Under the pieces are notes generated by a model that searched no databases, was not told where the DNA came from, and saw only the letters and a list, made by a program, of their open reading frames with translations. Below are positions 26,989-54,822 of a stretch of 64,000 bases of DNA, in pieces. The DNA lies in NCBI GenBank assembly GCA_934393265.1, contig CAKRQL010000013.1, forward strand, positions 25,082 to 89,081, in the 5' to 3' direction. The stretch comes from an uncultured Eubacteriales bacterium (lineage in GTDB: Bacteria > Bacillota > Clostridia > Oscillospirales > CAG-272). Positions within the stretch are counted from its first letter, which is position 1. The number at the start of each line of letters is the position of its first letter. The position numbers and the translations under genes are program-made.

Positions 26989-27063
26989 TGGTGACTCGTG
27001 GGAGAATCGAACTCCCGTTTCAGCCTTGAGAGGGCCGTGTCTTAGCCGCTTGACCAACGAGCC
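26989..27063 (-). tRNA. tRNA-Glu (anticodon CUC), CCA encoded
   Basis: Hand-folded from GGCTCGT-TG-GTCAAGCGGCTAAGAC-A-CGGCC-CTCTCAA-GGCTG-AAAC-GGGAG-TTCGATT-CTCCC-ACGAGTC-A-CCA. The acceptor stem, anticodon stem and T arm all pair. Confidence 0.9.
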
Positions 27064-31092: not shown

Positions 31093-31965
31093 ATGAAAAT
31101 ATCAATCAGGTTTTTTAACGATAAAGAAGTGCGTGCCGCTTGGAATGAGGAAAACAACAAGTGGTATTTCAGCGTTCTTGATATTATCGGAGCAATAAGA
31201 AAAGAAGATAATTACGAAAAATGCCGTAACTATTGGAAATACCTTAAAGCCAAACTGAAAAAAGAAAACAGCGAGTTGGTTAGTGCCACTACCCAACTGA
31301 AATTAACTGCCGCCGACGGAAAAAGGTATATGACGGACGCATTGGATTCCGACGGAGTTATTAAGCTTGCCGCAGAACTTCCGGGCAAGCTCGGCGCAGA
31401 GTTTATCGGTTGGTTTACGCGGTCGGACGATACGATTGACGGCAAAAGCAAGCAAAAGGCATACGCTTTGTTTGATAGTTCTTTTATAGACGCTATCGAA
31501 GTCGGAACTGCCAAAGGCTTACAACAGATTCACGCTTATTTATTCGGCGGATTATATGATTTTGCCGGGCAAATCCGAACGCTTAATATCGCAAAAGGCG
31601 GCTTTGCGTTTGCGCCCGCCATGTTTTTGCAGGATAATTTGCACTTGATTGAAAAAATGCCCGAGGATACGCTTGAAAACATAGTAAAAAAGTACGTTGA
31701 GATGAACGTTGCTCATCCGTTTATGGAAGGAAACGGTCGAAGTACTCGTATCTGGCTCGATTTGATTTTGAAAAAGAATCTTAAAAAATGTACCGATTGG
31801 AGCAAAATCGATAAAAAAGAATACCTTAATGCAATGCAAGAAAGTCCTGTCGATTCCTCGCATATTTACGAGCTTATAAAAAGCGCACTGACTGACGATA
31901 TAAACGATCGGGAAATCTTCATGAAAGGAATCGACTACTCTTATTATTACGAGCAGGTTGACTGA
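31093..31965 (+). CDS. fic: Fic-family AMPylase-type protein with N-terminal Bro-N/DinD-like DNA-binding domain
   Basis: Fic motif [12 protein letters not shown]. The N-terminal F.DKEVR..W.....WYFSV.DI.GA pattern is Bro-N-like. The gene is visibly AT-richer than its flanks. RBS is AAGGGGA. Confidence 0.9.
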
Positions 31966-31992: not shown

Positions 31993-32706
31993 TTATCCTA
32001 TATCCGAGAGGGTAATCTCCGCCTCGGAGTTTATGAGCCCGTCGGGGCGCACGGTGCGGAAGAAGTATTCGCCATCCGCCTCCCCGCGCTCGACTGCGAG
32101 ATTTGTGCCGAGGGGTGCCTCGTGCAGATAGGATACAGATATTTGGGAGATGTACCTTCCGTCGAGCGGCAGAAAGTCCGAATATATGTCCGGGTATCTC
32201 GTGTTATTCATGTGCCGGTTCTGGTCGACTCCCCCGTAGCAGACACGGTAGTCACCGACACGGACCATAGAGGAGGGTAGGGAAATTCTGCGCATAGTCA
32301 GGTCGAGCGGCGCGAGCTTCGGAAACGGGAGGTCAAAGTCGGACACGCGGACAAGCTGTCGCGTCTCCGTGTCGATAAGAGCCCAGACGGAAACCGCCCG
32401 CGCGACAATGTGCCCCCGGCAGGAGAGAGTATAGCACCTCGGGAAGCTGAAGCCCCGGCTCTCGCACGGGTAGGTTGTCGCGGTAATATGCTCGTATGCG
32501 CGCACCGGCTCGCTTATCTCCATTCTTATTTTCGAGAGAAGAAAGGCGCGCTTTTTTGCTATCAGATTCTCGTATGACATCCCACCGCTTGTCAGCTGGT
32601 CCTGTGCCGTCGACTGAATGTATTTCATAAGAGAGGAGGTCCGGCAGACACCGTTGTAGTCCGCGTCATGTATATCCGTAATTATTTCTTTTTCGTAGCC
32701 CTGCAA
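31993..32706 (-). CDS. Acyl-ACP thioesterase
   Basis: A tandem hot-dog thioesterase pattern (YEKE....D.D..G........Y.Q....Q; VD.N.HMNN..Y). The likely start is TTG 32706, 7 nt after AGAGGTGA. The tracked ATG at 32787 adds 27 non-conserved residues. Confidence 0.8.
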   Translation of the reverse strand: MQGYEKEIITDIHDADYNGVCRTSSLMKYIQSTAQDQLTSGGMSYENLIAKKRAFLLSKIRMEISEPVRAYEHITATTYPCESRGFSFPRCYTLSCRGHIVARAVSVWALIDTETRQLVRVSDFDLPFPKLAPLDLTMRRISLPSSMVRVGDYRVCYGGVDQNRHMNNTRYPDIYSDFLPLDGRYISQISVSYLHEAPLGTNLAVERGEADGEYFFRTVRPDGLINSEAEITLSDIG

Positions 32707-32914
32707 TTGAAAATCACCTCTGAAATGCTTATAGCGACCGCCGCCGTCGGGGTCCGACCGTCGCCTTTTTATTAATGATACACCCAAAGCCTGTGATTTT
32801 CAAGGAGCACATACCGGAAAGTTGTAAATTTTTATCGGTTTTTTGCCGGGGGGCTTGACCGCCGTGGTATACTAAAGAAAAGAATAAGCGATAATAACGC
32901 AGGAGGAAAAACGA

Positions 32915-33226
32915 ATGAAGGATGTAAATACGGAGAATTTTCAGGCAGAGGTCGAGGGTGCGCACGGGCTCGTCGTCATAGACCTATTCGCCACGTGGTG
33001 TCAGCCCTGTCGCATGCTCGCCCCGGTTATAGAGGAGCTCGAGGGAGAGTATCCGGAGGTTAATTTCTGCCGCGTGGATGTCGATGCGTCGCCGGATATA
33101 GCCGCGCAGTTCGGCGTCCGGAGCATACCGACCGTCGCGTTTGTAAAGGACGGCACTTTCCTTGATTTCACCGTAGGCGTCGTCCCGCGAGAAAAGCTCG
33201 CCGCGATGATAGAGCAGTACAGATAA
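32915..33226 (+). CDS. trxA: Thioredoxin (atypical WCQPC active site)
   Basis: 103 aa. F.AE......V.DLFA.WC.PC..LAP..EEL, then VD.D....A..F.V.SIPT..F.K.G. Confidence 0.92.
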   Translation: MKDVNTENFQAEVEGAHGLVVIDLFATWCQPCRMLAPVIEELEGEYPEVNFCRVDVDASPDIAAQFGVRSIPTVAFVKDGTFLDFTVGVVPREKLAAMIEQYR

Positions 33227-33252
33227 CGACAGGCAAAAAACGAATATCGGAG

Positions 33253-33290
33253 AACCCCGGGGTAAAATGTTGCCCCGGGGTTGTTTTTGT
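33253..33290 (+). terminator. Rho-independent terminator after trxA
   Basis: AACCCCGGGG-TAAAATGTTG-CCCCGGGGTT followed by GTTTTTGT. Confidence 0.75.
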
Positions 33291-33390
33291 ATATCCGCGC
33301 GAAAAGTAGACGCCCGCAACGCCTTGAACGAGGTGGAAATAAATGGTATAATCCGGAATATACCGACAAAGCAAAAAAAGGACGCTTAAA

Positions 33391-36300
33391 ATGAAAACGA
33401 CAAAGACCTTTCTCTTATTTTTATGGGTGCTCGCGCTGACGCTCCTGCTCGCCCTCCCGACGGAGAGTGCCGGGGACACCGGGCGGGCATCCGGCGTGAC
33501 GTATGCGGAAAGTGCCGCCACAGACACCTCCACGGCAGTGAGTGCCGCGCGCTCTGCCGTCCCGCCGCGCCACAGACAAACATCGGACGGGGAAGAATAC
33601 TCCTCCACTCTGACGCCCGCCGCCCCGATCGGTGGCACCTCCGGACAGAGTGAGAACACCGCCTACGGCTATACGCTCACGCTTGACGGTGGGGTTTATA
33701 CCCTCACGACAGACAGCGGCGCGCGGGCATACTCCGGGAGTCTCGACGGCGTCTCGGACTTTCTCGCGACCCGTCCGTCCGTCTCTCTCTTTCTTGATAT
33801 GAAGGAAGCCGCGGGCACGCTCCGTATAGCTACCGATGTGAATATCCGCGGCACCTGCTCGTTTTCCGACGGCGGAATAGTAGTTTCCGGCGGGCGTCTT
33901 GTCAGCTCGGCGGAAATAACCTTTTCCTCCGGCGGGCTCCGCATAAAAGAGGGCACCCTCACCGTCACGGGCGGGAGCCTCGTGTCCGCCTCCTCCGTCA
34001 TAGTCTCGGATTATTCCTCATCTGTTTCCGTATCGGTAACCGGGGGCGAGATAGTCTCACAGGGCAGGGAGCCGGCGATTAAAATCTCGCTCGGCACCCT
34101 CTCGCTCTCGGGCGGCAGCGTGAAGTGCGCCTACGGCTTCGCCGTCGACAACCGCGGGAGCCTCTCGCTATCCGGCTCTCCGGTAATCCGCGGGACAGTC
34201 TCCGATATATCGACCTCCGGCGCGGTCACACTCTTTGGCGCAGAGGGGAGCTTTTCCGGCACTGTGCGCGTTATATGCACTATGGATTTCCCGCTCGGGA
34301 GCCTTACCCCGGTGTTTTATTCGGCAGACGGGGAGCAGACGAAAAGCATAACCCTGACCGACAGCCGGGGCACGAGCCTTCCGCTCACATATTTCTCCTC
34401 CTCCCGCTATACGGATGAGCGGGATTTTCTCGCCGTATATCGTCCGCATACGGTTACATTCTATGCGCAAAACGGAGAAAAATACAGAACCGAGGAGCTG
34501 CTATCGGGAGAGTCTCCGACACTGCCGGAGCCGCCGGAGAGAGTCGGGTATTCTTTCTTCGGGTGGTGTGCCGATACGGCTGGGGATACCCCATATACAC
34601 CCGAGGGCGTGTATGAAAATATATCGCTTTACGCCGTATACAGGCTCTCCGCACCGACCTTCCTTTCGCAGAATATCACATTCACCTTTGACGGCGAATG
34701 GCACACGATAAACCCGGTTGTATTTTCCCACCCGCTTGACGGCGAGGGGCACTATGAGTATCTGTGGTACCGCGACGGCGCGGCTACCGATATTACCACT
34801 CCGACGCTTCGTATACGCGGTGTCCGCGACAGCGGGGAATACTCGCTTTCCGCTACCTTTTTCTGCGGTAACGAGCGCGTGACGGTGAGCGTTCCCGCGG
34901 TTACGGTGTCGGTCTCTCCGCTTTCGGTAGACCCGCCGGAGATACCCTCTGTGACCTATACCGGGCTCCCGCTTTTGCCCGCGGTTCCGTCTTGTGTCTG
35001 GTACGGATATTCCTTTGACCCGGTTATACATGCCGGGGAATATCCCGTTATACTTGAGCTCAAGGATCCCGGGAATACCGTCTGGCGGGGCGGCGACTTT
35101 GCGGCTCTGCCCCTGACCTTCCGCGTTCTGACGGCGGACAACCTGTGGACTATCTCCCCCGAAATATCCGATGTCTATGGGGGAGAGACCGCCGCCGTGT
35201 GCGCAGCCGCCCGCTTCGGTGTGCCGGAGTGGAGGTATTCCGTGTCCCCGGACGGCGGATATTCTCCGGATTTTCCGACCGCACCCGGCACATACTATGC
35301 AGTGTGTACCGTCCCGGGCACATCCGACGTGCGCGAAATCACGACTGCACCGATGCGCTTTACCGTAATGCGTGACGGCGTACTCTCGCTCCGAATAGCG
35401 GCACTGCCCGACAGAACCGAGTATTCCGCGTATGATTTCTTTGATCCTGCCGGGCTTTCCGTAATCGCCCTCCGCGAGAGCGGACGGAGCGGAGAGATTC
35501 CGCTCTCGGAGCTTGTATTTTCATACACGGGTGGCGCTGAATACTTTCTTTTCGGCGACAAAACGGTGAATGTCACGTATTCCGGGCGCACCTGCTCCGT
35601 CCCCGTCACAGTCCGCCTCGCCGAGTATGATATGTCCGGATTTCTCTTTTCGGATACGACGATTATATACGACGGCGGGTGGCATACAATATCCCCATCA
35701 AATCTTCCTGCGGGGCTCCTTTACAGCACAGATGTCAGCGCGCGTGACGCCGGGGAGTATACGGTAACCCTCACCTTTACATCAACCGACAGAAACCGAC
35801 GCGCCCCCGCCCCCGTGAGCGCGACCCTGACGATAAACCCCCTCCCGCTCACGGTAATATGGGGGGAATGTGAATTTGTATACGACGGCGCGCCGAAGCT
35901 CCCGGGCGCGTATGCGATAATGCCGGACGGCTATCGCCGGACACTCGCCGTAACAGGCGCAAGGACAAACGCGGGTGAGGGGTATGTCGCCGCGGCACAG
36001 GCACCGGACGGGAACCATACATTGATAAACCCGACCGCGGCATTTTTCATAGCCCGCGCAAGCTACGATATGTCGGGCGTACATTGGAGCGCGTCGGATT
36101 TTGTCTATGACGGGCAGGAGCACGGCGTGACACTTGCAGCTCTCCCTGCCGGGATTTCGGTTATAGGCTACTCTGGCTCCGTCGCTACTGCGGCGGGGGA
36201 GTATACCGCCACGGCAACCCTCGGCTACGACAGCGAGAATTACTATCCGCCAAAGGTAGCTCCGCTCGTCTGGCACATTCTCCGCGCGGATTACGACCTC

Positions 36301-38601
36301 GGTGAGCTCTCCTTTGTCGGCGGCGAGTTTGTTTACGACGGACTTGCCCACCTGCCGACCGTAACGGGCGAGATTCCCGCGGGATATGACGGCAGCGTGC
36401 CCGAATATACCATGACCGCCGGAGCCACCCATGTCTCGGAGGGCGAGGTAGCCGTATATCTCCGCTTTATTGTGACAAGTAAAAACTATAACACTCCAAA
36501 AGATTTGACGGCTTACGTGCGGATAGTCCCGTGCCGCGTCGGTGTCGTGTGGGAAAAGCTGACGTTTGTCTACGACGGCAGGGAGCACCTGCCGTCGTCA
36601 TCGGCTGTCTGCCCCCTCCGCGTTACCGGAGGAGCGACGGACGCCGGAAGCTATATAGCGATGGCTACCCCGCTGACGAGCGACTACGTTCTTACAAATC
36701 CGACCGTCGCCTTTACGGTAGAGCGCCGCGCTAATATGTGGACGGAGCAGCCGCGCATACCGGATATATTCGACGGAGATACCCCTCTGTGGTCTGCGGT
36801 GGCGGAGTACGGCGAGGCTGCCGTTACGTTCTTTCTTGACGAGGACTGCACCGCCCCGGCGGAAGGCTTCACCCCCGGGACGTATTACGCGGTGTTCACC
36901 GTGCCCGAGAGCCGGAACTATAAAGCACTTGTCTCCTCCCCAGTCCGTTTCCTTGTTGTAAAGATAGCTCCGGTGGGGATTTCTGCGGAGTGCGAGGGGG
37001 AGATAGTAGCGTTTTCCCCCGTCTCCGCTCTGCGAGCCGTCGTGCGCGTCCTGTATAATAACGGAGACGTCCGCACGGCGTCGCCGGACGAGTACATCGT
37101 CTCCTACCCCTCGGGGCATCTGCCGCATACGTCGGATACCACCGTCATATTCACCCTCGGCGAATTCTCCGTAACGAAAAATATAACCGTCGGGCGGGCT
37201 GTGCTTGACCTCTCCACCGTTCGGTACACCGGGCTCACCGTGACGTACGACGGGGAGGAGCACACCCCTGGTATAGCCTCACTGCCGGAGGGGGTCACCG
37301 TCCTGCGTATCGACGGCGGCGCGCGGGTCGCCGCGGGGGTCTACTCCGTCTCCGTGACCCTCGGCTACGACAGCGAGAACTATCTTGACCCCGGTGTCCT
37401 GCATCTCACAATGACAATAGAGAAAAAGACGGTAGTTCTTCCAACGCCGCCGGAATTTTCATACACGGGTAGGGCTTATATCCCCAAATTCCCGGAGTCC
37501 GGGCTCTATGACATCACAGCACCGGAGGTTCTGCACGCCGGGACATATCGCGCACGGGCAGCCCTCCGTGACAGGGATAACTACCGCTTCGCGGGGGCTG
37601 ACGGCGGGGAGTGTGAATTCACGTTCACCGTCTCCCCGGCGTATATCCGCGTCATCGTCGGGAACGTCACAAAATATATAGACGGAATAAAGGAAGGGCT
37701 CACCTACGTGAGTGCCGCTCCCATACCCGACGAGGCGGGGCTCCGGTTGTATACGGACGGCGGGCTCGTCCTCGCAGCCTTCGATAACCCGGACTATTAC
37801 GCCGACTGCGTCCCCGGGCGGATAAACCCGGTCGCCCGCCTCTCACCCTCCCTTATGACCTCTTTTGTGATACTTGCGGTAATTCTTATATTCCTCCTGA
37901 TACTCGCCGTGGCTCTCCCGCGCCTTATCCCGGTGATAAAGGAGAGAATACGGATAGCCTCCGTCGCCGCGAATATCAGAAGAAATACCGTATGCCCCTG
38001 CGCCCCGATAACCGTTCCGCGCCTCGCCCCGCCGGATAACCGCGGGGGCGGGGAAGAGGGACCCGCTCCCGACACCTTGCCCGGCGGCACGCCTGAAAGC
38101 GGTGACGACGACGTCCCCGCCGTAAAGCCGGACGCCGAAACCCCGGCTGTAAACGGACGCCCCGCCACCGAAACAGGTAGCCGTACCGCCGTCCGGCGCC
38201 TCCTCGCCACAAGACCCGTAACCCCCGCATACGCGGACGCCATGATAACCGACAGCGACGCAAAGGAGATGACCGAGCATGCGGAGGAGGTCATATATAC
38301 GAGCGGGCACCGCAGGAGAATTATAAATGTCGGCACGCTCTCGCGCGCCTTTCCCGACGGTGCCCGGGTCGATGTGAATATCCTGAAGGAGAGGTCGCTT
38401 GTTCCGTATGATACGGGCTATCTTAAAGTGCTCGCCGACGGGGTTATAGATAAGGAGCTCTCGGTGTATGCCGATGCTTTCAGCCTCGCGGCTGTCAAAA
38501 TGATAGCCCTCACAGGGGGCAGGGCGATAAAGGCGCACACAGAGCAGAGACAGGAGCCGCATCCGGACGAAAAAAACGCTGCCGGAGCGGAGAAAGAATA
38601 A
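33391..38601 (+). CDS. Giant (1,736 aa) cell-surface repeat protein with C-terminal TM anchor and cytoplasmic uL15-like domain
   Basis: Signal peptide MKTTKTFLLFLWVLALTLLLALP. It has a beta-helix-like Gly/Ser/Val region and a List-Bact-type repeat (VGYSFFGWCADTAGDTPY...ISLYAVY). There are at least 7 'F/VxYDGxxH' MBG-like modules and Big_3-like Ig domains. One TM helix lies near residue 1490, followed by a uL15-like C-terminus. Confidence 0.85.
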   Translation: MKTTKTFLLFLWVLALTLLLALPTESAGDTGRASGVTYAESAATDTSTAVSAARSAVPPRHRQTSDGEEYSSTLTPAAPIGGTSGQSENTAYGYTLTLDGGVYTLTTDSGARAYSGSLDGVSDFLATRPSVSLFLDMKEAAGTLRIATDVNIRGTCSFSDGGIVVSGGRLVSSAEITFSSGGLRIKEGTLTVTGGSLVSASSVIVSDYSSSVSVSVTGGEIVSQGREPAIKISLGTLSLSGGSVKCAYGFAVDNRGSLSLSGSPVIRGTVSDISTSGAVTLFGAEGSFSGTVRVICTMDFPLGSLTPVFYSADGEQTKSITLTDSRGTSLPLTYFSSSRYTDERDFLAVYRPHTVTFYAQNGEKYRTEELLSGESPTLPEPPERVGYSFFGWCADTAGDTPYTPEGVYENISLYAVYRLSAPTFLSQNITFTFDGEWHTINPVVFSHPLDGEGHYEYLWYRDGAATDITTPTLRIRGVRDSGEYSLSATFFCGNERVTVSVPAVTVSVSPLSVDPPEIPSVTYTGLPLLPAVPSCVWYGYSFDPVIHAGEYPVILELKDPGNTVWRGGDFAALPLTFRVLTADNLWTISPEISDVYGGETAAVCAAARFGVPEWRYSVSPDGGYSPDFPTAPGTYYAVCTVPGTSDVREITTAPMRFTVMRDGVLSLRIAALPDRTEYSAYDFFDPAGLSVIALRESGRSGEIPLSELVFSYTGGAEYFLFGDKTVNVTYSGRTCSVPVTVRLAEYDMSGFLFSDTTIIYDGGWHTISPSNLPAGLLYSTDVSARDAGEYTVTLTFTSTDRNRRAPAPVSATLTINPLPLTVIWGECEFVYDGAPKLPGAYAIMPDGYRRTLAVTGARTNAGEGYVAAAQAPDGNHTLINPTAAFFIARASYDMSGVHWSASDFVYDGQEHGVTLAALPAGISVIGYSGSVATAAGEYTATATLGYDSENYYPPKVAPLVWHILRADYDLGELSFVGGEFVYDGLAHLPTVTGEIPAGYDGSVPEYTMTAGATHVSEGEVAVYLRFIVTSKNYNTPKDLTAYVRIVPCRVGVVWEKLTFVYDGREHLPSSSAVCPLRVTGGATDAGSYIAMATPLTSDYVLTNPTVAFTVERRANMWTEQPRIPDIFDGDTPLWSAVAEYGEAAVTFFLDEDCTAPAEGFTPGTYYAVFTVPESRNYKALVSSPVRFLVVKIAPVGISAECEGEIVAFSPVSALRAVVRVLYNNGDVRTASPDEYIVSYPSGHLPHTSDTTVIFTLGEFSVTKNITVGRAVLDLSTVRYTGLTVTYDGEEHTPGIASLPEGVTVLRIDGGARVAAGVYSVSVTLGYDSENYLDPGVLHLTMTIEKKTVVLPTPPEFSYTGRAYIPKFPESGLYDITAPEVLHAGTYRARAALRDRDNYRFAGADGGECEFTFTVSPAYIRVIVGNVTKYIDGIKEGLTYVSAAPIPDEAGLRLYTDGGLVLAAFDNPDYYADCVPGRINPVARLSPSLMTSFVILAVILIFLLILAVALPRLIPVIKERIRIASVAANIRRNTVCPCAPITVPRLAPPDNRGGGEEGPAPDTLPGGTPESGDDDVPAVKPDAETPAVNGRPATETGSRTAVRRLLATRPVTPAYADAMITDSDAKEMTEHAEEVIYTSGHRRRIINVGTLSRAFPDGARVDVNILKERSLVPYDTGYLKVLADGVIDKELSVYADAFSLAAVKMIALTGGRAIKAHTEQRQEPHPDEKNAAGAEKE

Positions 38602-38607
38602 ATTCGC

Positions 38608-38636
38608 TTGCTTTTTTCCGGGGTTTGTGCTACAAT
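38608..38636 (+). promoter_or_regulatory. Sigma-A-type promoter of the ECF S-component gene
   Basis: TTGCTT-17 nt-TACAAT, 48 nt before the ATG. Confidence 0.55.
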
Positions 38637-38683
38637 ACTAACGACCCGCGTGCGCGGGCAAAATAAAATGACGGAGTTTTGTA

Positions 38684-39364
38684 ATGAATAACCTCAGAAA
38701 GCATGACATTCTGAAGCTGACTCTGACTGCAATGTTCGTGGCTCTGATAGTAATAATGGCTTTTACGCCGATAGGATACCTTCATATAGGTCCGGTGTCC
38801 ATAACGTTTATGGTGGTTCCGGTCGTGCTCGGCGCCTGCCTGTGCGGCACGGTGAGCGGCGCGGTGCTCGGTCTCGCATTCGGGCTGACGAGCTTTTTCC
38901 AGTGCTTCGGCATGGACCCGCTCGGCGTCTACCTCCTCGGGCAGAACGCCTTTCTGACCTTCCTGATGTGCGTGCTTCCGCGCGTGCTCATCGGGGTTTT
39001 CGCGTCCCTTGTCTATAAGCTGATAAGCCGCGGCATAAGACCGTCCGGCGAGGATGTCGGGGACGAGTGCGCGGATAACGCCCGCCCCGGCTCCACCCGC
39101 GAGATCATATCCTACACCGTATCGGGGATAGTCGGGTCGATAACGAATACCGTATTCTTTGTCGGTATGCTTGTCCTCTGCTTCTATACGACGGGTGCCC
39201 TCGCCGGCTATGCCGACGGCGCTCTTAACGTAGGTCTCGGAGAGCTTCTTATTATGCTCATTACCTCGAACAGCCTGATTGAACTGTGTGCCGATGCGGT
39301 TCTCGTCACCCTTATCTGCACTGCGCTCCGTCCCCTTCTTCGGAGGATAGAGGCAAATTTCTGA
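38684..39364 (+). CDS. ECF transporter S component (substrate unknown)
   Basis: 226 aa with 6 TM helices. The N-terminal L...AMFVAL.......PIG pattern is typical of ECF S components. Confidence 0.75.
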   Translation: MNNLRKHDILKLTLTAMFVALIVIMAFTPIGYLHIGPVSITFMVVPVVLGACLCGTVSGAVLGLAFGLTSFFQCFGMDPLGVYLLGQNAFLTFLMCVLPRVLIGVFASLVYKLISRGIRPSGEDVGDECADNARPGSTREIISYTVSGIVGSITNTVFFVGMLVLCFYTTGALAGYADGALNVGLGELLIMLITSNSLIELCADAVLVTLICTALRPLLRRIEANF

Positions 39365-39453
39365 AACCTCGGGGCTGTCGCTCCGGCGCCATACCGTAAT
39401 CCGGGACTGCGCACACTGCGACAGCCCCGAAAAAATACCCGTGGAGGCAAAAT

Positions 39454-40143
39454 ATGTCGGAAAAAAGCATAAAGGCTCTCTTTTTTGACAGAGACCTTAT
39501 AGCGATAGTAAAGCCCGCAGGTATACCGGCACAGCCGGACGCCACGGGGGATACAGACGCCCTTACCGCCGCGGCAGACTTTCTGTGCAGCTCCGGCGGC
39601 ACGGCGGACGTCTACCCGGTTCACAGGCTTGACCGCGTTGTCGGCGGGGTAATGGTCATTGCGAGAAATGCGAGGTCTGCGGCAGCTCTCTCCGCCGTAT
39701 TCGCGGGTCACGATATAAAGAAACGGTATGTTGCCGTCCTCGACGGTGCCGCCGCCGGGGGCGTGTATGAAAATTACATATATAAAGACGCCCGGGCAGG
39801 CAAGGCGTATGTCGTGAAAAATGCCCGCCGCGGTGCACGTCCCGCCTCGCTTGAGCTGTCCGCCGTATCCTCCGCTAAGGGCAGGCGCGGCGAAATACTG
39901 ACCCTCGCCGACATACTCCTGCACACCGGACGCTACCACCAGATAAGGGTGCAGTGCGCGTCGCGCGGGACCCCGGTTCTCGGCGACGGAAAGTACGGGA
40001 GCCATGAGAACGCCTGCGTCCCCGCGCTCTTTTCCCGGAGCCTTGAATTTACGCTTTCCGGCAAAAAATATTCTTTCTCCGCGGTGCCGGATTGTACCGT
40101 CTACCCGTGGAGTCTGTTTTCAAAGGAGATATCCGTGCTATGA
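39454..40143 (+). CDS. RluA-family pseudouridine synthase
   Basis: 229 aa. Catalytic HRLDR..(S/G)G.(L/M)V.A motif and HQIR near the C-terminus. Confidence 0.88.
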   Translation: MSEKSIKALFFDRDLIAIVKPAGIPAQPDATGDTDALTAAADFLCSSGGTADVYPVHRLDRVVGGVMVIARNARSAAALSAVFAGHDIKKRYVAVLDGAAAGGVYENYIYKDARAGKAYVVKNARRGARPASLELSAVSSAKGRRGEILTLADILLHTGRYHQIRVQCASRGTPVLGDGKYGSHENACVPALFSRSLEFTLSGKKYSFSAVPDCTVYPWSLFSKEISVL

Positions 40144-41366
40144 GAAATTATCCGGTCGTAACCGTAAGTGAAAAGGCGGAAAAATCCCTCCGCGGCGGGC
40201 ACCCGTGGGTGTATTCCGACGAGGTGCGGGAGGTGTGTGGCGCCTATGCCCCCGGCGATATAGTCGACGTGAAGTCCGGAAAGGGAAAATATCTCGGATC
40301 AGGATATATAAACGACAGCTCGAAGATACGGGTCAGGATAATATCGAAAAATCCGAACGACCGCTTTGACAGGGCATTTTACGAGCGGCGCGTCCGCTAT
40401 GCCATAGATTACCGCAGGACCGTAATGGGCGATGATTTCTCTGCCTGCCGGCTGATATTCGGTGAGGCGGATATGCTCCCGGGGCTCACCGTCGACAGAT
40501 TTTCAAATGTCCTCGTCACCGAGACTCTCTGCCTCGGCACCGAGAGGGTAAAGGATATTATTTTCTCATCTCTTGTAAGCACCCTCCGTCAGATGGGAGA
40601 GAGAATAGACGCGATATATGAGCGCAACAGCTCGCCGATCCGCGCCCTTGAGGGTATGGAGAGCTATGACGGATATTATTTTGCTCCGGGGCTTGACCTT
40701 TCGGAGATCCCGGGCGGCTCGGTATTCATTACCGAGAACGGGATAAAATACCGTGTCGATTTTGTGAACGGACAAAAGACAGGATTTTTCCTTGACCAGA
40801 AATATAACAGACAGGCTGTCGCAAAAATATCGCGCGGTCGCCGTGTCCTCGATTGCTTTACGCACACCGGCTCCTTCGGGCTGAATGTCGCGGCGGGCGG
40901 GGCAGCATCGGTTCTGAGCGTCGATATATCCGACGCGGCGCTTGATGTCGCGCGGGAAAACTGCGCGCTGAACGGCTTCTCCGACAGAATAGAATACCGC
41001 GCGGCTGATGTCTTTGACCTGCTCTCGGAGTACGAGAGGGAGGGAAAACGCGACTTTGACCTGATAATTCTTGACCCTCCGGCATTCACAAAGAGCCGTG
41101 CGACCCTCAAAAATGCGATAAAGGGCTACCGAGAGATAAATTACAGGGCAATGAAGCTCCTGCCCCGCGGCGGCTACCTTGCCACCTGCTCCTGCTCGCA
41201 CTTCATGACCGATACCTACTTCAAGCAGATGCTCCATAACGCGGCAGAGGACGCCGGAGTATCCCTCCGTCAGATAGAGGCAAGGACACAGTCTCCCGAC
41301 CACCCGATACTCTGGAACGTCCCGGAGACCGACTATCTGAAATTCTATATCTTCCAGATAGTCTGA
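40140..41366 (+). CDS. rlmI: rRNA large-subunit (cytosine-C5) methyltransferase RlmI-type (PUA + class I SAM MTase)
   Basis: Starts MRNYPVVTV...L..GHPWVY. It has GQKTGFFLDQ, LDCF..TG.F and IILDPPAF.K. The ATG at 40140 overlaps the upstream stop (ATGA). Confidence 0.88.
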   Translation: MRNYPVVTVSEKAEKSLRGGHPWVYSDEVREVCGAYAPGDIVDVKSGKGKYLGSGYINDSSKIRVRIISKNPNDRFDRAFYERRVRYAIDYRRTVMGDDFSACRLIFGEADMLPGLTVDRFSNVLVTETLCLGTERVKDIIFSSLVSTLRQMGERIDAIYERNSSPIRALEGMESYDGYYFAPGLDLSEIPGGSVFITENGIKYRVDFVNGQKTGFFLDQKYNRQAVAKISRGRRVLDCFTHTGSFGLNVAAGGAASVLSVDISDAALDVARENCALNGFSDRIEYRAADVFDLLSEYEREGKRDFDLIILDPPAFTKSRATLKNAIKGYREINYRAMKLLPRGGYLATCSCSHFMTDTYFKQMLHNAAEDAGVSLRQIEARTQSPDHPILWNVPETDYLKFYIFQIV

Positions 41367-41447
41367 AAAAGCACGAAATCAATACACGCCCCACGCCCCT
41401 TTCCGCTCTAAGCTGACGGAAAGCCCGGTACAGACGAGGTTTTATAT

Positions 41448-42614
41448 ATGTGTGAAAAGCTCTTTTACAAGGACGCTTATATAAGTGAATTTACATCCGT
41501 CGTCACCTCCTGCGGGAGCGCGGACGGCGGCTATGCGATAACCCTCCGGGAGACTGCCTTTTTCCCAGAGGCGGGCGGGCAGGGGTGCGACGGCGGGTGG
41601 ATAGACGACCTCCGGGTCACGTCGGTTTACGAGTCGGGTGGCGGGATTTTTCATATTGTCCCGTCGTCGCTCCCGGTCGGGACGAAGGTTTTCTGCCGTC
41701 TCGATTTTTCCCCGAGGTACGAGCGTATGCAGTGCCATACGGCGGAGCACATGTTCTCCGGCACGCTCCATCGTCTCTTCGGCGCGGAGAATGTCGGCTT
41801 TCACCTCTCGGAGCGGGAGATGACCCTTGATACCGATATTCCGCTGACGCGGGAACAGCTTGCCGCGGCGGAATATGAGGCGAACCTCGCGGTCTACCGC
41901 AATATTCCCGTCGTCGCATACTACCCGACGTCAGAGGAGGCGGCGAATATATCCTACCGCTCAAAGGGCGAGTACGCCGCGGGAGAATTGCGTCTTGTCA
42001 GAATAGACGGCGTCGATGTCTGCGCCTGCTGCGCGCCGCACGTCCGCTCGACCGGGGAGGTCGGGATAATAAAGGTGCTTTATTCCGAAAAGCATAAGGG
42101 CGGCACCCGGGTGTATCTCACCGCCGGTGTGAGAGCCTACCGTATACTTTCGGAGGAGCATGAAACGCTGAGAAAAATTTCCGTCTGCCTCTCCGCCCCG
42201 GCTTCGGAGTGCGCAGAGGCTGTCGCAAAAACGGTTTCGGATATGCGGGACACGGCGGCAGAGTACCGCGTATACCGCACCTCGGTTGCGACACGGCTCG
42301 GTGCCACACTCCCGTATACCGACGGTAACCGGATATGCGTCCTTAATGATACGGAGCCGGAGACGCTCCGTGCCTTTGCCGACGCCGCAAAGGAGAGAGC
42401 CGGAGGGCTCACTCTCGCCCTCTCCGGTGAGGAGGGAAATTACAGATACGTGCTCGCCTGCCGCGGGGAAAGCATCGCACCGCATGTGACGGCGCTTAAC
42501 CTCGCGCTCTCGGGTCGCGGCGGCGGCAGGGGAGAGATGGCACAGGGGACGGCTTCGTCCGCACTCAAAAAAGCCGAGGAGCACCTCGGCGTCAAAGCCT
42601 CGGTGCTCCTCTGA
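41448..42614 (+). CDS. Alanyl-tRNA editing protein (AlaX-L-like, with DHHA1-like C-terminus)
   Basis: Zinc/editing motifs HTAEHMFSG and CCAPHV. C-terminal GGGRGEMAQG. Confidence 0.8.
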   Translation: MCEKLFYKDAYISEFTSVVTSCGSADGGYAITLRETAFFPEAGGQGCDGGWIDDLRVTSVYESGGGIFHIVPSSLPVGTKVFCRLDFSPRYERMQCHTAEHMFSGTLHRLFGAENVGFHLSEREMTLDTDIPLTREQLAAAEYEANLAVYRNIPVVAYYPTSEEAANISYRSKGEYAAGELRLVRIDGVDVCACCAPHVRSTGEVGIIKVLYSEKHKGGTRVYLTAGVRAYRILSEEHETLRKISVCLSAPASECAEAVAKTVSDMRDTAAEYRVYRTSVATRLGATLPYTDGNRICVLNDTEPETLRAFADAAKERAGGLTLALSGEEGNYRYVLACRGESIAPHVTALNLALSGRGGGRGEMAQGTASSALKKAEEHLGVKASVLL

Positions 42615-42634
42615 ATATTCTTTTTCCGGGAATA

Positions 42635-43132
42635 TCATTCTTCAACCTCAAAATTCAGGACTATTTCGGATCTTGTGGGCTTGAATTTCGTCAGCTTTAT
42701 TCCCGCCGCCGTCATCATCCTGCGTGACGCCTCGGTAGACTCGGTTCCTTTGTACTTGTCGGAAAGATAGATAACCTCGCGTACCCCTGCCTGTATTATT
42801 GCTTTCGCACATTCGTTGCAGGGAAACAGCGCGACGTAGAGAATGGAGTCCGCGAGGGATTTTCCCCGCGTGTTGAGTATCGCATTGAGCTCCGCGTGTA
42901 CGACGAAGTTGTACTTCGTCTCGCCGAGGGATGCGTCACGGTTCCACGGGAACTCGTCGTCAGAGCACCCCTGCGGGAAGCCGTTGTAGCCTGTTGAGAG
43001 TATTCTGCGCTGTCTGTCGACAATACATGCGCCGACGCGGGTGTTCGGGTCCTTCGACCTCTCCGCGGCGAGGAGCGCGACCCCCATGAAATATTCGTCC
43101 CAGCTTATGTATCCGTTTCTCTTCTCGGTCAT
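42635..43132 (-). CDS. Deoxycytidylate (dCMP) deaminase
   Basis: 165 aa. W.EYFM..A.L.A.RS.DP, HAELNAI and PCNECAK.I. Confidence 0.93.
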   Translation of the reverse strand: MTEKRNGYISWDEYFMGVALLAAERSKDPNTRVGACIVDRQRRILSTGYNGFPQGCSDDEFPWNRDASLGETKYNFVVHAELNAILNTRGKSLADSILYVALFPCNECAKAIIQAGVREVIYLSDKYKGTESTEASRRMMTAAGIKLTKFKPTRSEIVLNFEVEE

Positions 43133-43236
43133 ATTACCTCCGGGGGAGCCGCGGGTTGCGCGGGCATCCTTTTAACTGATTTTTATTGAAGTATAGCATA
43201 AATTATCCGCACTGTCAAGTGCCGCGGGGGTCCATT

Positions 43237-44178
43237 ATGAACGCTGCCGTAAAAGAAAAATATGAATACGGGCGACAGCTCACATATTCGCCCTGCACCC
43301 TCTGCGCAAGAATGTGCCGCGCCGCGAGAGACTCCGGCGGGCGCGGTGCCTGCCGCATGGGGTGCGCCCCCGTTGTCGCGCGTGCCGCTCTACACATGTG
43401 GGAGGAGCCGCCAATATCCGGAACCCGCGGTGCGGGCGCGGTCTTTTTTTCCGGCTGCTCGCTCGGATGTATTTATTGCCAGAACCGGGAGATCTCCCGG
43501 GGGGAGAGCGGCATTGAGACAGACACCGGCCGTCTCTCGGAGATATTCTTTGAGCTCCGCGCCGCCGGAGCGCATAATATCGACCTCGTCACCCCGACGC
43601 ATTTTGCGCCGTCGGTTATCGCGGCGATAGACATGGCGCGGAGCCGCTGCTTTGACCTCCCGTTTATATGGAACACATCGTCCTACGATACGAGGGAGAC
43701 AATACGTGCTCTCGCGGGCAGGGTGGATATTTTTCTACCCGACCTTAAATACTCCGGCGGGGCACTCGCGGAAAAATACTCCGCCGCCCCGGATTACCCG
43801 GCAGTGGCGCGCGCCGCGATAGAGGAAATGATGCGCATATCCCCAACACCCGTGTATGATAATGAGGGAATAATGAGGCGGGGCGTCATCGCTCGCATAC
43901 TGCTCTTGCCCGGCAGGGTTGCGGAGGCAAAGCGGTCGGTCGCATACCTCTATCATACCTACGGCGACAATATCGTAATAAGCCTTATGAGCCAGTATAC
44001 ACCTCTCCCGAATCTCCCGCGTGAGCTCTCCCGTCCCGTCAGTCGCGAGGAGTACCGTGATCTTTGTGATTACGCTATGCGCATAGGCGTAACGAACGCC
44101 TTTATACAGGAGGGCGGTGCCGCCGCGGAGAGCTTCATTCCGCCTTTTGATAATACGGGCGTCCTCCCGCGGGAGTAG
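43237..44178 (+). CDS. Radical SAM protein, PflX-like (pyruvate formate-lyase activase homolog)
   Basis: CX3CX2C cluster CSLGCIYCQN preceded by H.WEEPPISG..G.G..FFSGC. The start was chosen at ATG 43237 (GGGGGT RBS) rather than the tracked TTG 43186. Confidence 0.82.
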   Translation: MNAAVKEKYEYGRQLTYSPCTLCARMCRAARDSGGRGACRMGCAPVVARAALHMWEEPPISGTRGAGAVFFSGCSLGCIYCQNREISRGESGIETDTGRLSEIFFELRAAGAHNIDLVTPTHFAPSVIAAIDMARSRCFDLPFIWNTSSYDTRETIRALAGRVDIFLPDLKYSGGALAEKYSAAPDYPAVARAAIEEMMRISPTPVYDNEGIMRRGVIARILLLPGRVAEAKRSVAYLYHTYGDNIVISLMSQYTPLPNLPRELSRPVSREEYRDLCDYAMRIGVTNAFIQEGGAAAESFIPPFDNTGVLPRE

Positions 44179-50397: not shown

Positions 50398-51279
50398 ATG
50401 AAAAAAACGATACTTGCTCTTCTGATTATCACCCTTGCCTTTACCGCCTTTTCAGCCTGTGCGGACGATGACGCAGACAAGGACGACAAGAACTCGCCGC
50501 TGCCGGAGGAGACCCTCGTTTCCGAGCTTGACCCCGGTAGCAGAAGCCTTATAAAGTCGCTTACCGATTATCTGAAGCAACTGAATGTCAACTTTGATCG
50601 TGATATGACTGAGCTAAACCTTAAGTCGCGCATAGACAAAATAAACGCGGGAGCAATGCCGCTCTTTGCTTCCTTTGATACGAAAAGTAATTATTTTGTC
50701 TGCGCCTATTATAATGCCGACCATGAGTACGACGAGACATCATACTGCTGCGCTGATAATTACACATGGGTAAAGGCTCAGAGAGCCGACTGTATTCCGG
50801 AGACCTACGGCGGCGCGCCCCATGTCGTCAGCTTTCAGATAAATACCGCTCCCACCGTCGCGGACCTAACCGGCAGGGCAGAGAGTGTCCCGTCGCTCGG
50901 TCATTTTCAGATGTACTCGCCGGAGTTTATCGGCGGCGTCAATAAAAAGGCGGCTCTTGATTACGATACCCCGATAATATACTTAAACGGTAGCAATGAT
51001 ACCGCCGTCTATGTCTCATCATATTCCTATAATTTCGATTACAACACCCTCCCGTATGTCACACTTGACGGCAGAGTATATATAACGGCGCTCCGGTATA
51101 CCGTGGCAAGGGACGGCACCAGAAGAGAAAATGACCTCAGATACGACCTCGGCAGGTATTATGACGCTCTCACCGGCATAATGCAAAGTGAAAATCACAG
51201 CGTCGAAGCCTCCGGCATCACATCGGTATACGCCCTCTTCGAGCTCGGCGAATTTATAGATACGGTTACGGCAAAGTAA
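50398..51279 (+). CDS. Lipoprotein of unknown function, paralog 1
   Basis: Signal peptide with a lipobox (..AFTAFSAC). 293 aa, homologous end to end with 51577-52416. RBS is AAAGGAG. Confidence 0.8.
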   Translation: MKKTILALLIITLAFTAFSACADDDADKDDKNSPLPEETLVSELDPGSRSLIKSLTDYLKQLNVNFDRDMTELNLKSRIDKINAGAMPLFASFDTKSNYFVCAYYNADHEYDETSYCCADNYTWVKAQRADCIPETYGGAPHVVSFQINTAPTVADLTGRAESVPSLGHFQMYSPEFIGGVNKKAALDYDTPIIYLNGSNDTAVYVSSYSYNFDYNTLPYVTLDGRVYITALRYTVARDGTRRENDLRYDLGRYYDALTGIMQSENHSVEASGITSVYALFELGEFIDTVTAK

Positions 51280-51341
51280 GCTGATTTCTATGGGCGCGGC
51301 TTAGCACAATTTATCTTTTTTCAAATTATCGCAATTTCTTG

Positions 51342-51370
51342 TTGACACATTAGTCAAAATTTGTTATAAT
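51342..51370 (+). promoter_or_regulatory. Perfect-consensus sigma-A promoter with extended -10 (lipoprotein paralog 2)
   Basis: TTGACA-17 nt-(TGT)TATAAT. It is homologous to the promoter at 50330-50358. Confidence 0.7.
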
Positions 51371-51500
51371 ATTATTGTAAGCAAAGACGGTGGAGGGCAT
51401 GGTATGTTTTCATATGTGTGTAGGCAATACTACCCAACAGAAGATATATCTATGCATTTTTACCGATATAGGGGCGGGCAATTGAAAATTCTGATGTTTT

Positions 51501-51545
51501 GCGCATGAACGGGCTCACTATGTTAGCCTGTCCATGCGCTTTTTA
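51501..51545 (+). terminator. Intrinsic-terminator-like hairpin inside the 5' leader of lipoprotein paralog 2
   Basis: GCGCATG..(GGGCT...AGCCT)..CATGCGC followed by TTTTTAC, 30 nt before the RBS. Confidence 0.5.
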
Positions 51546-51576
51546 CATGAAGAGTTATTTGGAGGGAGTGATTGAA

Positions 51577-52416
51577 ATGAAAAAAATTATAATCTTAATT
51601 CTTGCTTTTACGGTTGTTTTTGCGGTATTCCCGGGGTGTGCAAAAAACGACAGCACACTTGAAGAGATTTCACCTCGGGACAACGGGTTGATAGAAAAAC
51701 TTGTCGATTATCTCGGAGAGACCAACGCAAATTACGATATGCCGGAACTGACTCTGAAGAGCAGAATTAATCAGATAAACAATGGGAAACAAGCGCTGCT
51801 TGCCTCATTTGATATGGCAGATAGTTATTTTGTCTGCGCTTACTATAGCGAAGGTCACGAAAACGAAAAGACGTCATATTGTTGTGCTGATAAATACACA
51901 TGGGTTAAGACCAAATATGCAGATTGTATCCCCGAGAGTTACAATGGTTCTCATCACATTGTAAGCTTTCAGTTGAACAGAGCCTCTTCGGTTGAAAATA
52001 TTATATCCGCAACGGAGAAAGCCCCTGCACTTGAACATTTTCAGATATATAAACCGGAGTTCAAGGATGGTCTGAATATTAAATCCCCGCTGTCATTTAA
52101 TACCCAGCTAATCAACATTGCGGAGACGGGCACTGACATCGTCTACATCTCCACTTTGTCAAGTGATTTTGATTATGTTACAATTCCATGTGCAAAACTT
52201 GGCAAAAAGATATATATAACGCAGATGTTGTATGTTGAGAAAAGCGACGGCACCCGTTCTGAAAATGATGTCAGCTACGATTTGGGTGAATATTATGACG
52301 CTTTGAGCGAGATTATGCTGACAGAGCGCTATGTTATTCCTACAGGGGACGGACAGTCCGTCGTGTACGGCTTGTTTGAAATCGACGACTTCGTAAAGGC
52401 AATCACTGAAAAATAG
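51577..52416 (+). CDS. Lipoprotein of unknown function, paralog 2 (AT-rich copy)
   Basis: Starts MKKIIILILAFTVVFAVFPGC (lipobox) at ATG 51577, after a GGAGGGA RBS. It shares the SYCCAD.YTWVK, CIPE.Y and H.VSFQ.N blocks with paralog 1. Confidence 0.82.
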   Translation: MKKIIILILAFTVVFAVFPGCAKNDSTLEEISPRDNGLIEKLVDYLGETNANYDMPELTLKSRINQINNGKQALLASFDMADSYFVCAYYSEGHENEKTSYCCADKYTWVKTKYADCIPESYNGSHHIVSFQLNRASSVENIISATEKAPALEHFQIYKPEFKDGLNIKSPLSFNTQLINIAETGTDIVYISTLSSDFDYVTIPCAKLGKKIYITQMLYVEKSDGTRSENDVSYDLGEYYDALSEIMLTERYVIPTGDGQSVVYGLFEIDDFVKAITEK

Positions 52417-52458
52417 TATTGTAAAACAGGATTATAAAAAACAAGGAGGAGATAAAAC

Positions 52459-54051: not shown

Positions 54052-54822
54052 TTACTGCATATATTTCCGCAGTTTGTCAATAGCCGCTTTTTCGAGCCTC
54101 GAAACCTGCGCCTGGCTTATCCCTATCTCGGAGGAGATTTCCATTTGGGTCTTCCCGGAGTAGAAGCGACGGTCGATTATCCCGCGCTCCCGAGGGGTGA
54201 GCTTTGAGAGCGCGTCGCGCAGCGACATGTTCTCGACCCAGTCGTCGTCCCCGTCGCCCTCGCTCTTTATCTGGTCGATAACATAGACAGAGTCCTCGCC
54301 GTCGTTGTAGACCGAGTCATAGAGCGACACCGGCTCGACAATAGCCTCGAGCGCCCCGCCGACAGCCCCCTCAGACTCGCCGAGGGCTTTTGCTATCTCC
54401 GCCACCGTCGCGTCCCTGTGGTGCTCTGCGGAGATCTTCTCCCGCACCTGCAGCGCCCGATAGGCGAGGTCGCGCACGCTCCGGCTTATCCGCACGGAGT
54501 TGTTGTCGCGCAGATACCGCCGTATCTCGCCGATTATCATAGGGACGGCGTAGGTGGAAAAGCGAACATCAAGTGTGAGATTAAAATTGTCGATAGCCTT
54601 GATGAGCCCGATGCACCCGACCTGAAACAGGTCGTCGACAGACTCTCTCTTCGCTCCGAACCGCTGAATGACGCTTAAAACGAGCCGCAGATTTCCGATG
54701 ACGAGGCGGTCGCGCGCGCTCCTGTCACCCTCACGCACTCTGAGCAGGAGCCGCCGCTTTTCCTCCTCTGTCAGCGTCGTCAGCTCGGAGGTGTTTATCC
54801 CGCATATCTCAACCTTATTCAT
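54052..54822 (-). CDS. sigG: Sporulation sigma factor SigG
   Basis: 256 aa. It tracks B. subtilis SigG closely as I recall it (NKVEICG..TS.L, GNLRLVLSVIQRF, DDLFQVGCIGL.K.IDNF, FSTYAVPMIIGEIRRYLRDNN, GISQAQVSRLEKAAI). Confidence 0.9.
   Translation of the reverse strand: MNKVEICGINTSELTTLTEEEKRRLLLRVREGDRSARDRLVIGNLRLVLSVIQRFGAKRESVDDLFQVGCIGLIKAIDNFNLTLDVRFSTYAVPMIIGEIRRYLRDNNSVRISRSVRDLAYRALQVREKISAEHHRDATVAEIAKALGESEGAVGGALEAIVEPVSLYDSVYNDGEDSVYVIDQIKSEGDGDDDWVENMSLRDALSKLTPRERGIIDRRFYSGKTQMEISSEIGISQAQVSRLEKAAIDKLRKYMQ

Follow-up and report, generated by a model that had tools for sequence, protein, structure and literature searches.

The DNA analysed here, a stretch of 64,000 nucleotides that we refer to as the window, covers positions 25,082 to 89,081 of contig CAKRQL010000013.1 (assembly GCA_934393265.1) from an uncultured Eubacteriales bacterium. 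It carries a long open reading frame (ORF) whose 1736-aa product is made up, in order, of a predicted signal peptide, a large ectodomain, a single transmembrane (TM) helix, a linker and a C-terminal module related to the bacterial ribosomal protein uL15 (Table 1). The protein thus joins a ribosomal-protein fold reused elsewhere to a TM-anchored giant surface protein, a combination of which the literature searched gives no description. A first-pass annotation, made from the sequence alone, had singled out this tail, and its positions and sequences prove exact, with residue 1487 at nucleotide 37849 and residues 1641-1717 at nucleotides 38311-38541. The hydrophobic helix that it had claimed at about 37849-37938 is present (SLMTSFVILAVILIFLLILAVALPRLIPVI), and the linker that it had called Pro/Gly/Asp-rich has the composition described and is rich in Glu as well.

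Table 1. Features of the window, with positions counted from its first nucleotide; the parts of the giant gene are given first.
Feature	Position	Strand	Basis or remark
Whole gene, 1736-aa protein (predicted type I membrane protein)	33391..38601	+	single uninterrupted ORF
Signal peptide (predicted), residues 1-27 (MKTTKTFLLFLWVLALTLLLALPTESA)	33391..33471	+	basic n-region, hydrophobic h-region, small-residue c-region
Ectodomain (predicted), residues 28-1486 (~1,460 aa)	33472..37848	+	Pfam, repeat motif, orthologue identity
Flg_new (Listeria-Bacteroides repeat), residues 353-416	34447..34638	+	PF09479, 41.7 bits vs. cutoff 27, E = 1.3e-10
Single TM helix (SLMTSFVILAVILIFLLILAVALPRLIPVI), residues 1487-1516	37849..37938	+	Kyte-Doolittle 19-residue mean 3.35
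Basic juxtamembrane stretch (KERIRIASVAANIRR), then Pro/Gly/Asp/Glu-rich linker, residues 1517-1604	37939..38202	+	poorly conserved
Family-specific extension of the module, residues 1605-1640	38203..38310	+	two short helices and a beta-hairpin; AlphaFold2, conservation
uL15-C-like core, residues 1641-1717	38311..38541	+	PF00828, TIGR01071, PDB sequence, Foldseek
Short variable C-terminal tail, residues 1718-1736, and stop codon	38542..38601	+	low predicted local distance difference test score (pLDDT)
Clade-conserved gene block	31993-44178	mixed, thioesterase (-)	neighbour counts over 82 loci
RluA-type gene	39454-40143		
PUA/SAM methyltransferase ORF	40092-41366		listed with TTG start
Fic/DOC-family gene	31093-31965		290 aa; PF02661, 50 bits
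tRNA gene	26992-27063	-	Rfam
Low-GC island	50398-53958		GC 0.41-0.46 vs. ~0.55 elsewhere
Sigma-70-family gene	54052-54822	-	adjoins the low-GC island

Identity and Fold of the C-Terminal Module

The tail matches PF00828 (Ribosomal_L27A) at residues 1644-1712 over essentially the entire 72-position model (positions 1-71), with 39.5 bits (E = 7.8e-10) in a search with the full protein and 46 bits (E = 7.1e-12) with the tail alone (gathering cutoff, 21.5 bits); the same model gives 24-52 bits with every relative examined. Among PDB chain sequences the best phmmer matches are uL15 chains (6o8w_M, E = 1.4e-7), aligned over uL15 residues ~75-142, and a profile of 83 family members reaches E = 8.4e-12 over uL15 residues 73-143. 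Over ~70 residues, the identity of the core to uL15 of Enterococcus, Listeria and mycobacteria is 33-42%; the core shares with these proteins the motifs (V/I)(V/I)N(L/V)..L, KVL..G and K.L.V.A..FS..A...I...GG, and is closer to bacterial uL15 than to archaeal L18e (33 vs. 23 bits). Structure prediction leads to the same family: with an AlphaFold2 model of residues 1603-1736 built on a 20-sequence alignment (mean pLDDT 88.7, predicted template modelling score 0.78), all of the 50 best PDB matches in Foldseek are uL15 or eL18 chains of ribosome structures, with no non-ribosomal chain among them, and the probability to uL15 chains is 1.00, several of these superimposing with a root-mean-square deviation of 1.4-2.0 Å over 71-78 columns at 28-39% identity. 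The Pfam, PDB sequence and fold searches are thus concordant and bear out the proposal of the first-pass annotation that the tail follows the C-terminal half of uL15. The uL15/eL18 match is far beyond chance, and the alignments together with the predicted model show the core of the module to descend from the globular C-terminal half of the bacterial protein.

The core is preceded by an extension of the family's own, predicted with high pLDDT to form two helices (residues 1612-1618 and 1621-1627) and extended structure at residues 1629-1637. Its helix motif, AD.(L/M)I(T/S)D..A, is kept in all relatives, distant ones included, and uL15 profiles do not match this region (residues 1605-1640).

Relation to Ribosomal uL15

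In the ribosome, the N-terminal ~70 residues of uL15 form a basic, Gly/Arg/Lys-rich extension that threads 23S rRNA and accounts for most of the protein's basic charge; its gene, rplO, encodes a soluble protein of ~145 aa and lies in the spc operon between rpmD and secY. Compared with this protein, the module has a homologous core and the same predicted fold, but it lacks residues 1-72, brings its own extension of two helices and a hairpin, and has a more hydrophobic last helix (AVKMI.LTGG in the family vs. A.EAIE.AGG in uL15). Where uL15 has its N-terminal half, the module has an acidic linker and two acidic family-specific helices, and no profile or PDB alignment reaches before uL15 residue ~72; a tblastn search of the window with a generic uL15 N-terminus, an approximate query, likewise returned nothing. 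The rplO equivalog model TIGR01071 scores 27.4 bits with the whole protein and 33.5 bits with the tail alone (35-42 bits with relatives of the module), below its cutoff of 77.95, and the match covers only positions 73-142 of 144. Finally, the module stands at the end of membrane proteins of 180 to >2,700 aa outside the spc operon; in the window it belongs to a 1736-aa membrane-type protein whose gene neighbours are neither rpmD nor secY, and the 64 kb hold neither a canonical rplO nor a second copy of the module. On these grounds, namely the score below the TIGR01071 cutoff, the missing N-terminal half and the non-ribosomal gene neighbourhood, the possibility that the tail is a true or decayed rplO was rejected. 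By these sequence features the module is not a ribosomal protein, and we infer that it does not function as one.

Ectodomain, Anchor and Topology

The predicted ectodomain consists of a Gly/Ser/Val-rich N-terminal region, one Flg_new domain and ~10 divergent repeats of ~75 aa with the motif [FV]xY[DT]G...AGxY...NY. Flg_new is the only family above threshold in Pfam and NCBIfam, the Big_3 and Fil_haemagg matches being non-significant; the ectodomain sequence has no match in the PDB, and no recognisable fold is assigned to its N-terminal region by sequence comparison. At the motif level only, we take the repeats ([FV]xYDG...AGxY...NY, ~10 copies) to resemble those of MBG/YDG-type adhesins, families for which the 1736-aa protein gives no Pfam match even at E<=10. 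No LPXTG motif precedes the helix (...GRINPVARLSPSLMTSFVIL...), which is followed by a further 220 residues; since a sortase motif is missing ahead of it, the helix is taken as the sole anchor of the protein.

The signal-peptide call is heuristic, read from the sequence and from comparison with orthologues, 70 of 71 complete ones having a signal-like Met and hydrophobic segment at the N-terminus. In 79 proteins of the window's clade the TM helix lies 39-221 residues ahead of the module, and the 15-residue flanks of the helix hold on average 4.47 Lys and Arg on the C-terminal side vs. 2.47 on the N-terminal side (C-side higher in 66/79); in diverse relatives the asymmetry is 4.26 inside vs. 0.66 outside (63/65). 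Together, the signal-like N-termini and the positive-inside rule show, at the level of sequence prediction, a type I protein with an N-out/C-in orientation, as the first-pass annotation had supposed, in which the last ~220 residues are cytoplasmic. The linkers of the window's clade, 39-221 aa long (median 73), contain 13.7% Glu and carry a net charge of -7.8 per 100 residues; with diverse relatives included, their length extends to 39-618 residues.

Orthologues and the Reality of the Fusion

The identical 1736-aa protein is found on 13 contigs from NCBI, ENA and Logan assemblies, and in the 39-member cluster to which it belongs at 90% identity, a length of 1736 aa is shared by 13 of the 15 members listed. 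A scan of one genome per GTDB species detected relatives of the tail in 188 genomes; the orthologue loci analysed here are those of the best 80 of these 188 species-level genomes with a tail match, all of them metagenome-assembled genomes (MAGs) of uncultured gut Clostridia/Eubacteriales from humans, ruminants, deer and yak. In ~70 orthologues the module ends one continuous ORF of 690-1830 aa that has an N-terminal hydrophobic segment and a TM helix shortly before the module, so that the pairing of TM helix and uL15-like tail recurs in related Clostridia and, beyond these orthologues, in more distant relatives. A HMMER search over 1.84 billion representatives of 50%-identity clusters yielded at least 271 matches at E<=1e-30 and at least 1383 at E<=1e-10; among the 150 matches listed, the match stops a few residues from the C-terminus in 150/150, at a typical protein length of 1,600-1,800 aa. 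One homologue search with the C-terminal domain gave only proteins of <=245 aa, and for this reason the architecture statistics are drawn from the species-genome loci, the HMMER listing and metagenome loci.

These data bear directly on an artefactual origin, in which a separate gene, a true or decayed rplO, would have been joined to the giant ORF by an assembly or frameshift error, or the match would be due to chance. Such an origin could draw on public naming, fragment gene calls being labelled 'ribosomal protein L15/L18E' by JGI and 'uL15 family ribosomal protein, partial' by NCBI with the full-length proteins unnamed, and on two contigs (L002 and L090) with frameshifts or N-gaps. We nevertheless consider it extremely improbable: the ORF is identical on 13 contigs of independent assemblies, ~70 species have it as a continuous frame, the match statistics are far beyond chance and the features that define rplO are missing. 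The fusion is real, since the identical ORF on the 13 contigs is joined by ~70 orthologues of the same layout and gene order, and the frameshift or misassembly that the first-pass annotation had named as a threat to its proposal does not account for it. Fragment labels of the kind quoted can mislead marker-gene counts in metagenome bins.

Two individual loci deserve separate mention. At L002:504-1118 and L090:2826-4921 what looks like a frameshift separates the giant ORF from the tail, within the TM region or immediately behind it, and likely represents a sequencing or assembly error. Contig CAVEOF010000051.1 (L005), labelled Coriobacteriaceae bacterium, carries a giant gene nearly identical in layout and TM sequence to that of an Eubacteriales MAG (L006) and is probably mis-binned. 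A phage or mobile origin of the gene was rejected, as there is no PHROG match, no relative in viral contigs and no structural match in BFVD; the sole plasmid match, on a record of 747 kb from Enterococcus faecalis, is a gene annotated as canonical rplO.

The Wider Module Family

At ~40-60% identity, relatives of the module occur in other settings, always at the extreme C-terminus. Fused giants of >2,700 aa are found at ~15 metagenome loci; in them, two hydrophobic segments lie 330-700 residues ahead of the module. In split versions, the giant ORF closes with a TM helix of its own plus a short basic tail, and a second gene, at -55 to +29 nt, encodes a TM helix, an acidic linker, in some cases a companion domain (see below) and the module. 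At L087 and L088, for example, the giant is a Flg_new protein of 1856-2064 aa with a terminal TM helix of its own, and the gene for TM helix, acidic linker and module follows after 6 nt, with its ribosome-binding site overlapping the giant's stop codon; metagenomes supply at least 9 more such giant/module gene pairs. By these comparisons the module is shown to constitute a large non-ribosomal family at the C-terminus of membrane-tethered proteins of gut Firmicutes; it is found, in hundreds of lineages of gut Firmicutes, either as part of a giant surface protein or encoded by a gene next to that of one, and this recurrent fusion and fission is the strongest functional clue that we have.

The module also occurs without a giant. 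A 221-aa TM-linker-module protein (L071:9677-10342) occupies the syntenic slot of the window gene, with the thioesterase gene upstream, the ECF-S, RluA-type and AlaX-like genes downstream and the thioredoxin gene missing; since it keeps TM helix, linker and module without an ectodomain, the function of the module appears independent of the ectodomain. Further stand-alone proteins consist of TM helix and module (L089) or of soluble module (L083 and L100).

The soluble forms also bear on whether the module might be a released signalling domain, set free by intramembrane proteolysis upon shedding or strain and acting in the cytoplasm, for example on translation. By analogy, the predicted type I layout and flexible linker could be likened to those of substrates of regulated intramembrane proteolysis. 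This explanation appears very unlikely to us, however, as genes for site-1 or site-2 proteases do not recur in the neighbourhood of the loci, the N-out/C-in orientation is the opposite of that of bacterial anti-sigma factors, and the sequence gives no indication of a cleavage site.

A distinct genomic context is seen at L086:6008-12957, an operon in which a TetR-like regulator and two SipW-like signal peptidases, whose C-terminal tails are long and charged, are encoded together with three TasA/camelysin-like proteins with '...ALFT' SipW-type signal peptides, one of which has 699 aa and beta-helix-like repeats. Here a 179-aa protein (P0253) composed of TM helix, linker and module is encoded by a gene whose start shares 4 nt with the end of the first sipW-like gene, a context that would link the module to the biogenesis of secreted fibres.

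Ahead of the module, 66 of 86 diverse hosts have a further predicted cytoplasmic domain of ~130 residues, present in one or two copies and marked by the motif Y[ND]RSF..AKLIQ ... SW ... GR ... GKTL.LYLALDP ... KY..VP ... S.R..KYA.ELI (loci L093-L172, L090 and L091, e.g., L119:3332-3750 and L105:7450-7900). This companion domain has no match in Pfam or NCBIfam, a homology search with it returned only four unnamed small proteins, and its AlphaFold2 model, from a 7-sequence alignment, reaches a pLDDT of 49, too low for the model to be of use. It also occurs as stand-alone proteins of 176-226 aa, one of them near a 3,451-aa Flg_new giant. As it is missing from all 79 proteins of the window's clade, the window protein represents a minimal version of the tail, a pared-down branch within a much larger family of cytoplasmic tails borne by giant surface proteins.

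Conservation and Charge of the Tail

Across 69 orthologues, identity to the window protein is 31-40% in the ectodomain, 23% in the TM helix, 17% in the linker and 35% in the extension helices and rises to 64% in the uL15-like core, the highest of all segments, where the figures for the tail are biased upward because the loci were ascertained through it. An alignment of 83 sequences has 15 invariant and 19 nearly invariant columns, many of them fold-determining positions common to uL15. Conserved positions specific to the family concentrate in the last helix and in the extension helices, and we infer that the latter would pack on the formerly solvent-exposed face of the former. Mean net charge is -2.2 for the extension and +3 for the core. 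The C-terminal tail is Lys-rich in most relatives (22.5% Lys, mean net charge +2.5) and acidic in the window protein. A catalytic or ligand site at D1661, N1663, D1674 and D1687 was considered and dropped because these residues, invariant or nearly so in the window's clade only, are lost in distant relatives (DRVDVN to DTVTL).

Such conservation bears on the simplest use of a folded tail, a passive cytoplasmic stopper that fixes the C-terminus inside and for which any compact fold would do. It is consistent with the invariable position of the module at the extreme C-terminus after the TM helix, with the helix being the only anchor in a protein that lacks a sortase motif, and with the lack of a conserved partner gene over 49 module subtypes. 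It would nonetheless be surprising if a plug were the segment with the strongest conservation (64% vs. 31-40% in the ectodomain) or kept 15 columns invariant and 19 nearly so across 83 species; a plug would have no need of a long flexible linker (39-618 residues), and the module persists without an ectodomain (L071) and as soluble stand-alone proteins (L083 and L100). We therefore regard the stopper as unlikely.

Proposed Function

In light of the architecture and distribution described above, we propose, with a rough probability of 0.45, that the module is a tethered docking or adaptor head by which surface proteins make contact with a conserved partner inside the cell or with one another. 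The signal peptide would export the ~1,460-residue repeat-rich ectodomain and the one helix would anchor the protein in the membrane, such that ~220 residues, running from a basic juxtamembrane stretch through a flexible acidic linker to a compact module of ~110 residues, would face the cytoplasm. The module has lost the rRNA-penetrating N-terminal half of uL15 and gained two helices and a hairpin, and it would act as a docking head carried by a flexible tether directly beneath the membrane, via which giant surface proteins or fibres could engage a well-conserved intracellular partner. We favour protein-protein contact as the mode, in the form of either self-association (clustering) or recruitment of a cytoplasmic factor, with the outcome that the surface structure would be anchored, positioned or assembled from inside.

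Several observations weigh against this proposal. The topology rests on the positive-inside rule and signal-peptide heuristics only, and it is ambiguous in the giants with two hydrophobic segments. In a subtype with ORFs of 495-540 aa (L147, L149, L151, L152, L158 and L166), the order is N-terminal TM helix, Flg_new, acidic linker, companion domain and module, which places Flg_new, normally an extracellular domain, on the module's side of a single TM helix; the Flg_new match is genuine (32.9 bits in Pfam vs. a cutoff of 27, 36 bits with TIGR02543) and the charge flanks predict this side to be cytoplasmic, so that either Flg_new is cytoplasmic or the module is outside in that subtype. The ascertainment bias noted above inflates the conservation of the tail, and clustering of neighbour genes over the 49 module subtypes reveals no recurrent partner except giant ORFs. 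Moreover, three lysines shared with uL15, K1666, K1679 and K1688, are invariant or nearly so in the 83 sequences, and since the core descends from an rRNA-binding domain and keeps them, RNA binding is a possible activity of the module.

The same lysines speak for a membrane-tethered ribosome or RNA receptor, a head that keeps affinity for 23S rRNA, for the (immature) 50S subunit or for other RNA and holds ribosomes or transcripts under the membrane, e.g., for local, secretion-coupled translation of very long mRNAs. Both a docking of this kind and a repurposed interaction module had been suggested in the first-pass annotation. We consider a receptor role possible but doubtful. It would accord with the homology of the core to an rRNA-contacting domain, with the core's net charge of +3 and the Lys-rich C-terminal tails of most relatives, and with the very high conservation of the tail, which would suit a partner as conserved as the ribosome; the steady association with giant exported proteins would supply a rationale, and the 50 best PDB matches, with no non-ribosomal protein among them, offer no precedent for a protein-binding use of the fold. 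It is at odds, on the other hand, with the acidic C-terminal tail of the window protein itself and with the occupation of the uL15 site in mature ribosomes by real uL15, and the RluA-type, PUA-methyltransferase and AlaX-like neighbours that might hint at it are clade-specific and not found near distant relatives. The N-terminal ~70 residues that thread rRNA are moreover missing entirely and an acidic linker and acidic helices stand in their place, which speaks against the receptor in general and weakens in particular a literal uL15 mimic in the uL15 site. That the uL15-derived head would serve as a receptor for large subunits or rRNA and in this way keep the translation of the giants at the membrane seems to us rather unlikely; if true, it would amount to a ribosome-docking device made from a fragment of a ribosomal protein and the first non-ribosomal use of the uL15/eL18 fold.

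If the proposed docking head holds, the uL15/eL18 fold, known so far only from ribosomes, would have been recruited into a large non-ribosomal family, with at least ~1,400 clusters at 50% sequence identity and carriers among no fewer than 188 species-level gut Clostridia genomes. Giant surface proteins of Gram-positive gut bacteria are as a rule regarded as adhesins that act outside the cell only, whereas here a strongly conserved intracellular module, often accompanied by a second, unannotated domain, would imply coupling between inside and outside, be it for anchoring, positioning, assembly or local translation. The module is small, confidently predicted and easy to express, which makes the question of its partner directly testable.

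Comparison with Known Systems

Domains of ribosomal type are reused outside the ribosome in several families, including S1, S4, KOW, L7Ae/YlxQ and bL25/Ctc, which are widespread, soluble and RNA-binding and have documented ligands. The uL15-like module resembles these in being a domain of ribosomal ancestry in a non-ribosomal protein and differs from them in its predicted tethering to the membrane. Membrane tethers for ribosomes are known as well, among them the C-terminal tails of YidC/Oxa1, mitochondrial Mba1 and p180/RRBP1 of the endoplasmic reticulum, which act near the exit tunnel through basic tails or unrelated folds. The likeness to these would be one of geometry only, a cytoplasm-facing element on a membrane protein, as the module is instead a folded uL15 derivative on an acidic leash.

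On the extracellular side, Ebh of Staphylococcus aureus is a giant surface protein anchored by a TM helix. As in Firmicutes giants with Flg_new, InlB B-repeat or Ig-like domains, the window protein has a predicted signal peptide, a long repeat-rich ectodomain with Flg_new above threshold and a C-terminal membrane helix with a basic cytoplasmic flank; unlike them, it has no LPXTG motif and carries a conserved folded module on a long acidic tether in place of a short basic tail. It further differs from variable adhesins, as its gene is single-copy and syntenic in the clade. We know of no uL15-like component described for TasA/SipW systems; the module is linked to such fibre operons by the one distant relative encoded inside one of them (P0253 at L086), whereas the window locus itself has neither SipW nor TasA genes. 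Giant proteins of Clostridia have been noted in gut metagenomes (bioRxiv 10.1101/2023.11.21.568195). A full-text literature search and a paper on giant prokaryotic genes yielded no description of a non-ribosomal or membrane-tethered uL15-like domain.

Gene Neighbourhood and Other Features of the Window

The giant gene is a single-copy, syntenic core gene of its clade. Its neighbours in the window are genes for an acyl-ACP thioesterase (on the minus strand), a thioredoxin, an ECF-S component, an RluA-type pseudouridine synthase, a PUA/SAM methyltransferase, an AlaX-like protein and a radical-SAM protein. Over the 82 loci of the window's clade, the RluA-type gene lies directly downstream of the giant gene in 80, and the other members of the block are counted 74 times (AlaX-like, tRNA_SAD/DHHA1), 61 times (radical-SAM), 55 times (thioesterase), 51 times (thioredoxin), 13 times (ECF-S) and 5 times (PUA/SAM, RlmI-like methyltransferase). 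A functional tie to the downstream RluA-type, PUA-methyltransferase and AlaX-like genes was rejected: none of them recur around distant relatives of the module, and these translation-related neighbours accordingly reflect clade-specific synteny.

Just upstream of the conserved block lies a Fic/DOC-family gene that has a counterpart in 0 of the 82 related loci. Rfam reports one tRNA gene and no other RNA element in the window. An island of low guanine-plus-cytosine (GC) content, which adjoins the sigma-70-family gene and contains three ORFs (293, 305 and 499 aa) that match nothing in Pfam, may have been acquired horizontally. Lastly, the PUA/SAM methyltransferase ORF, with the TTG start listed for it, overlaps the RluA-type gene by 52 nt, and its true start is probably a downstream ATG (MRNYPVV...).

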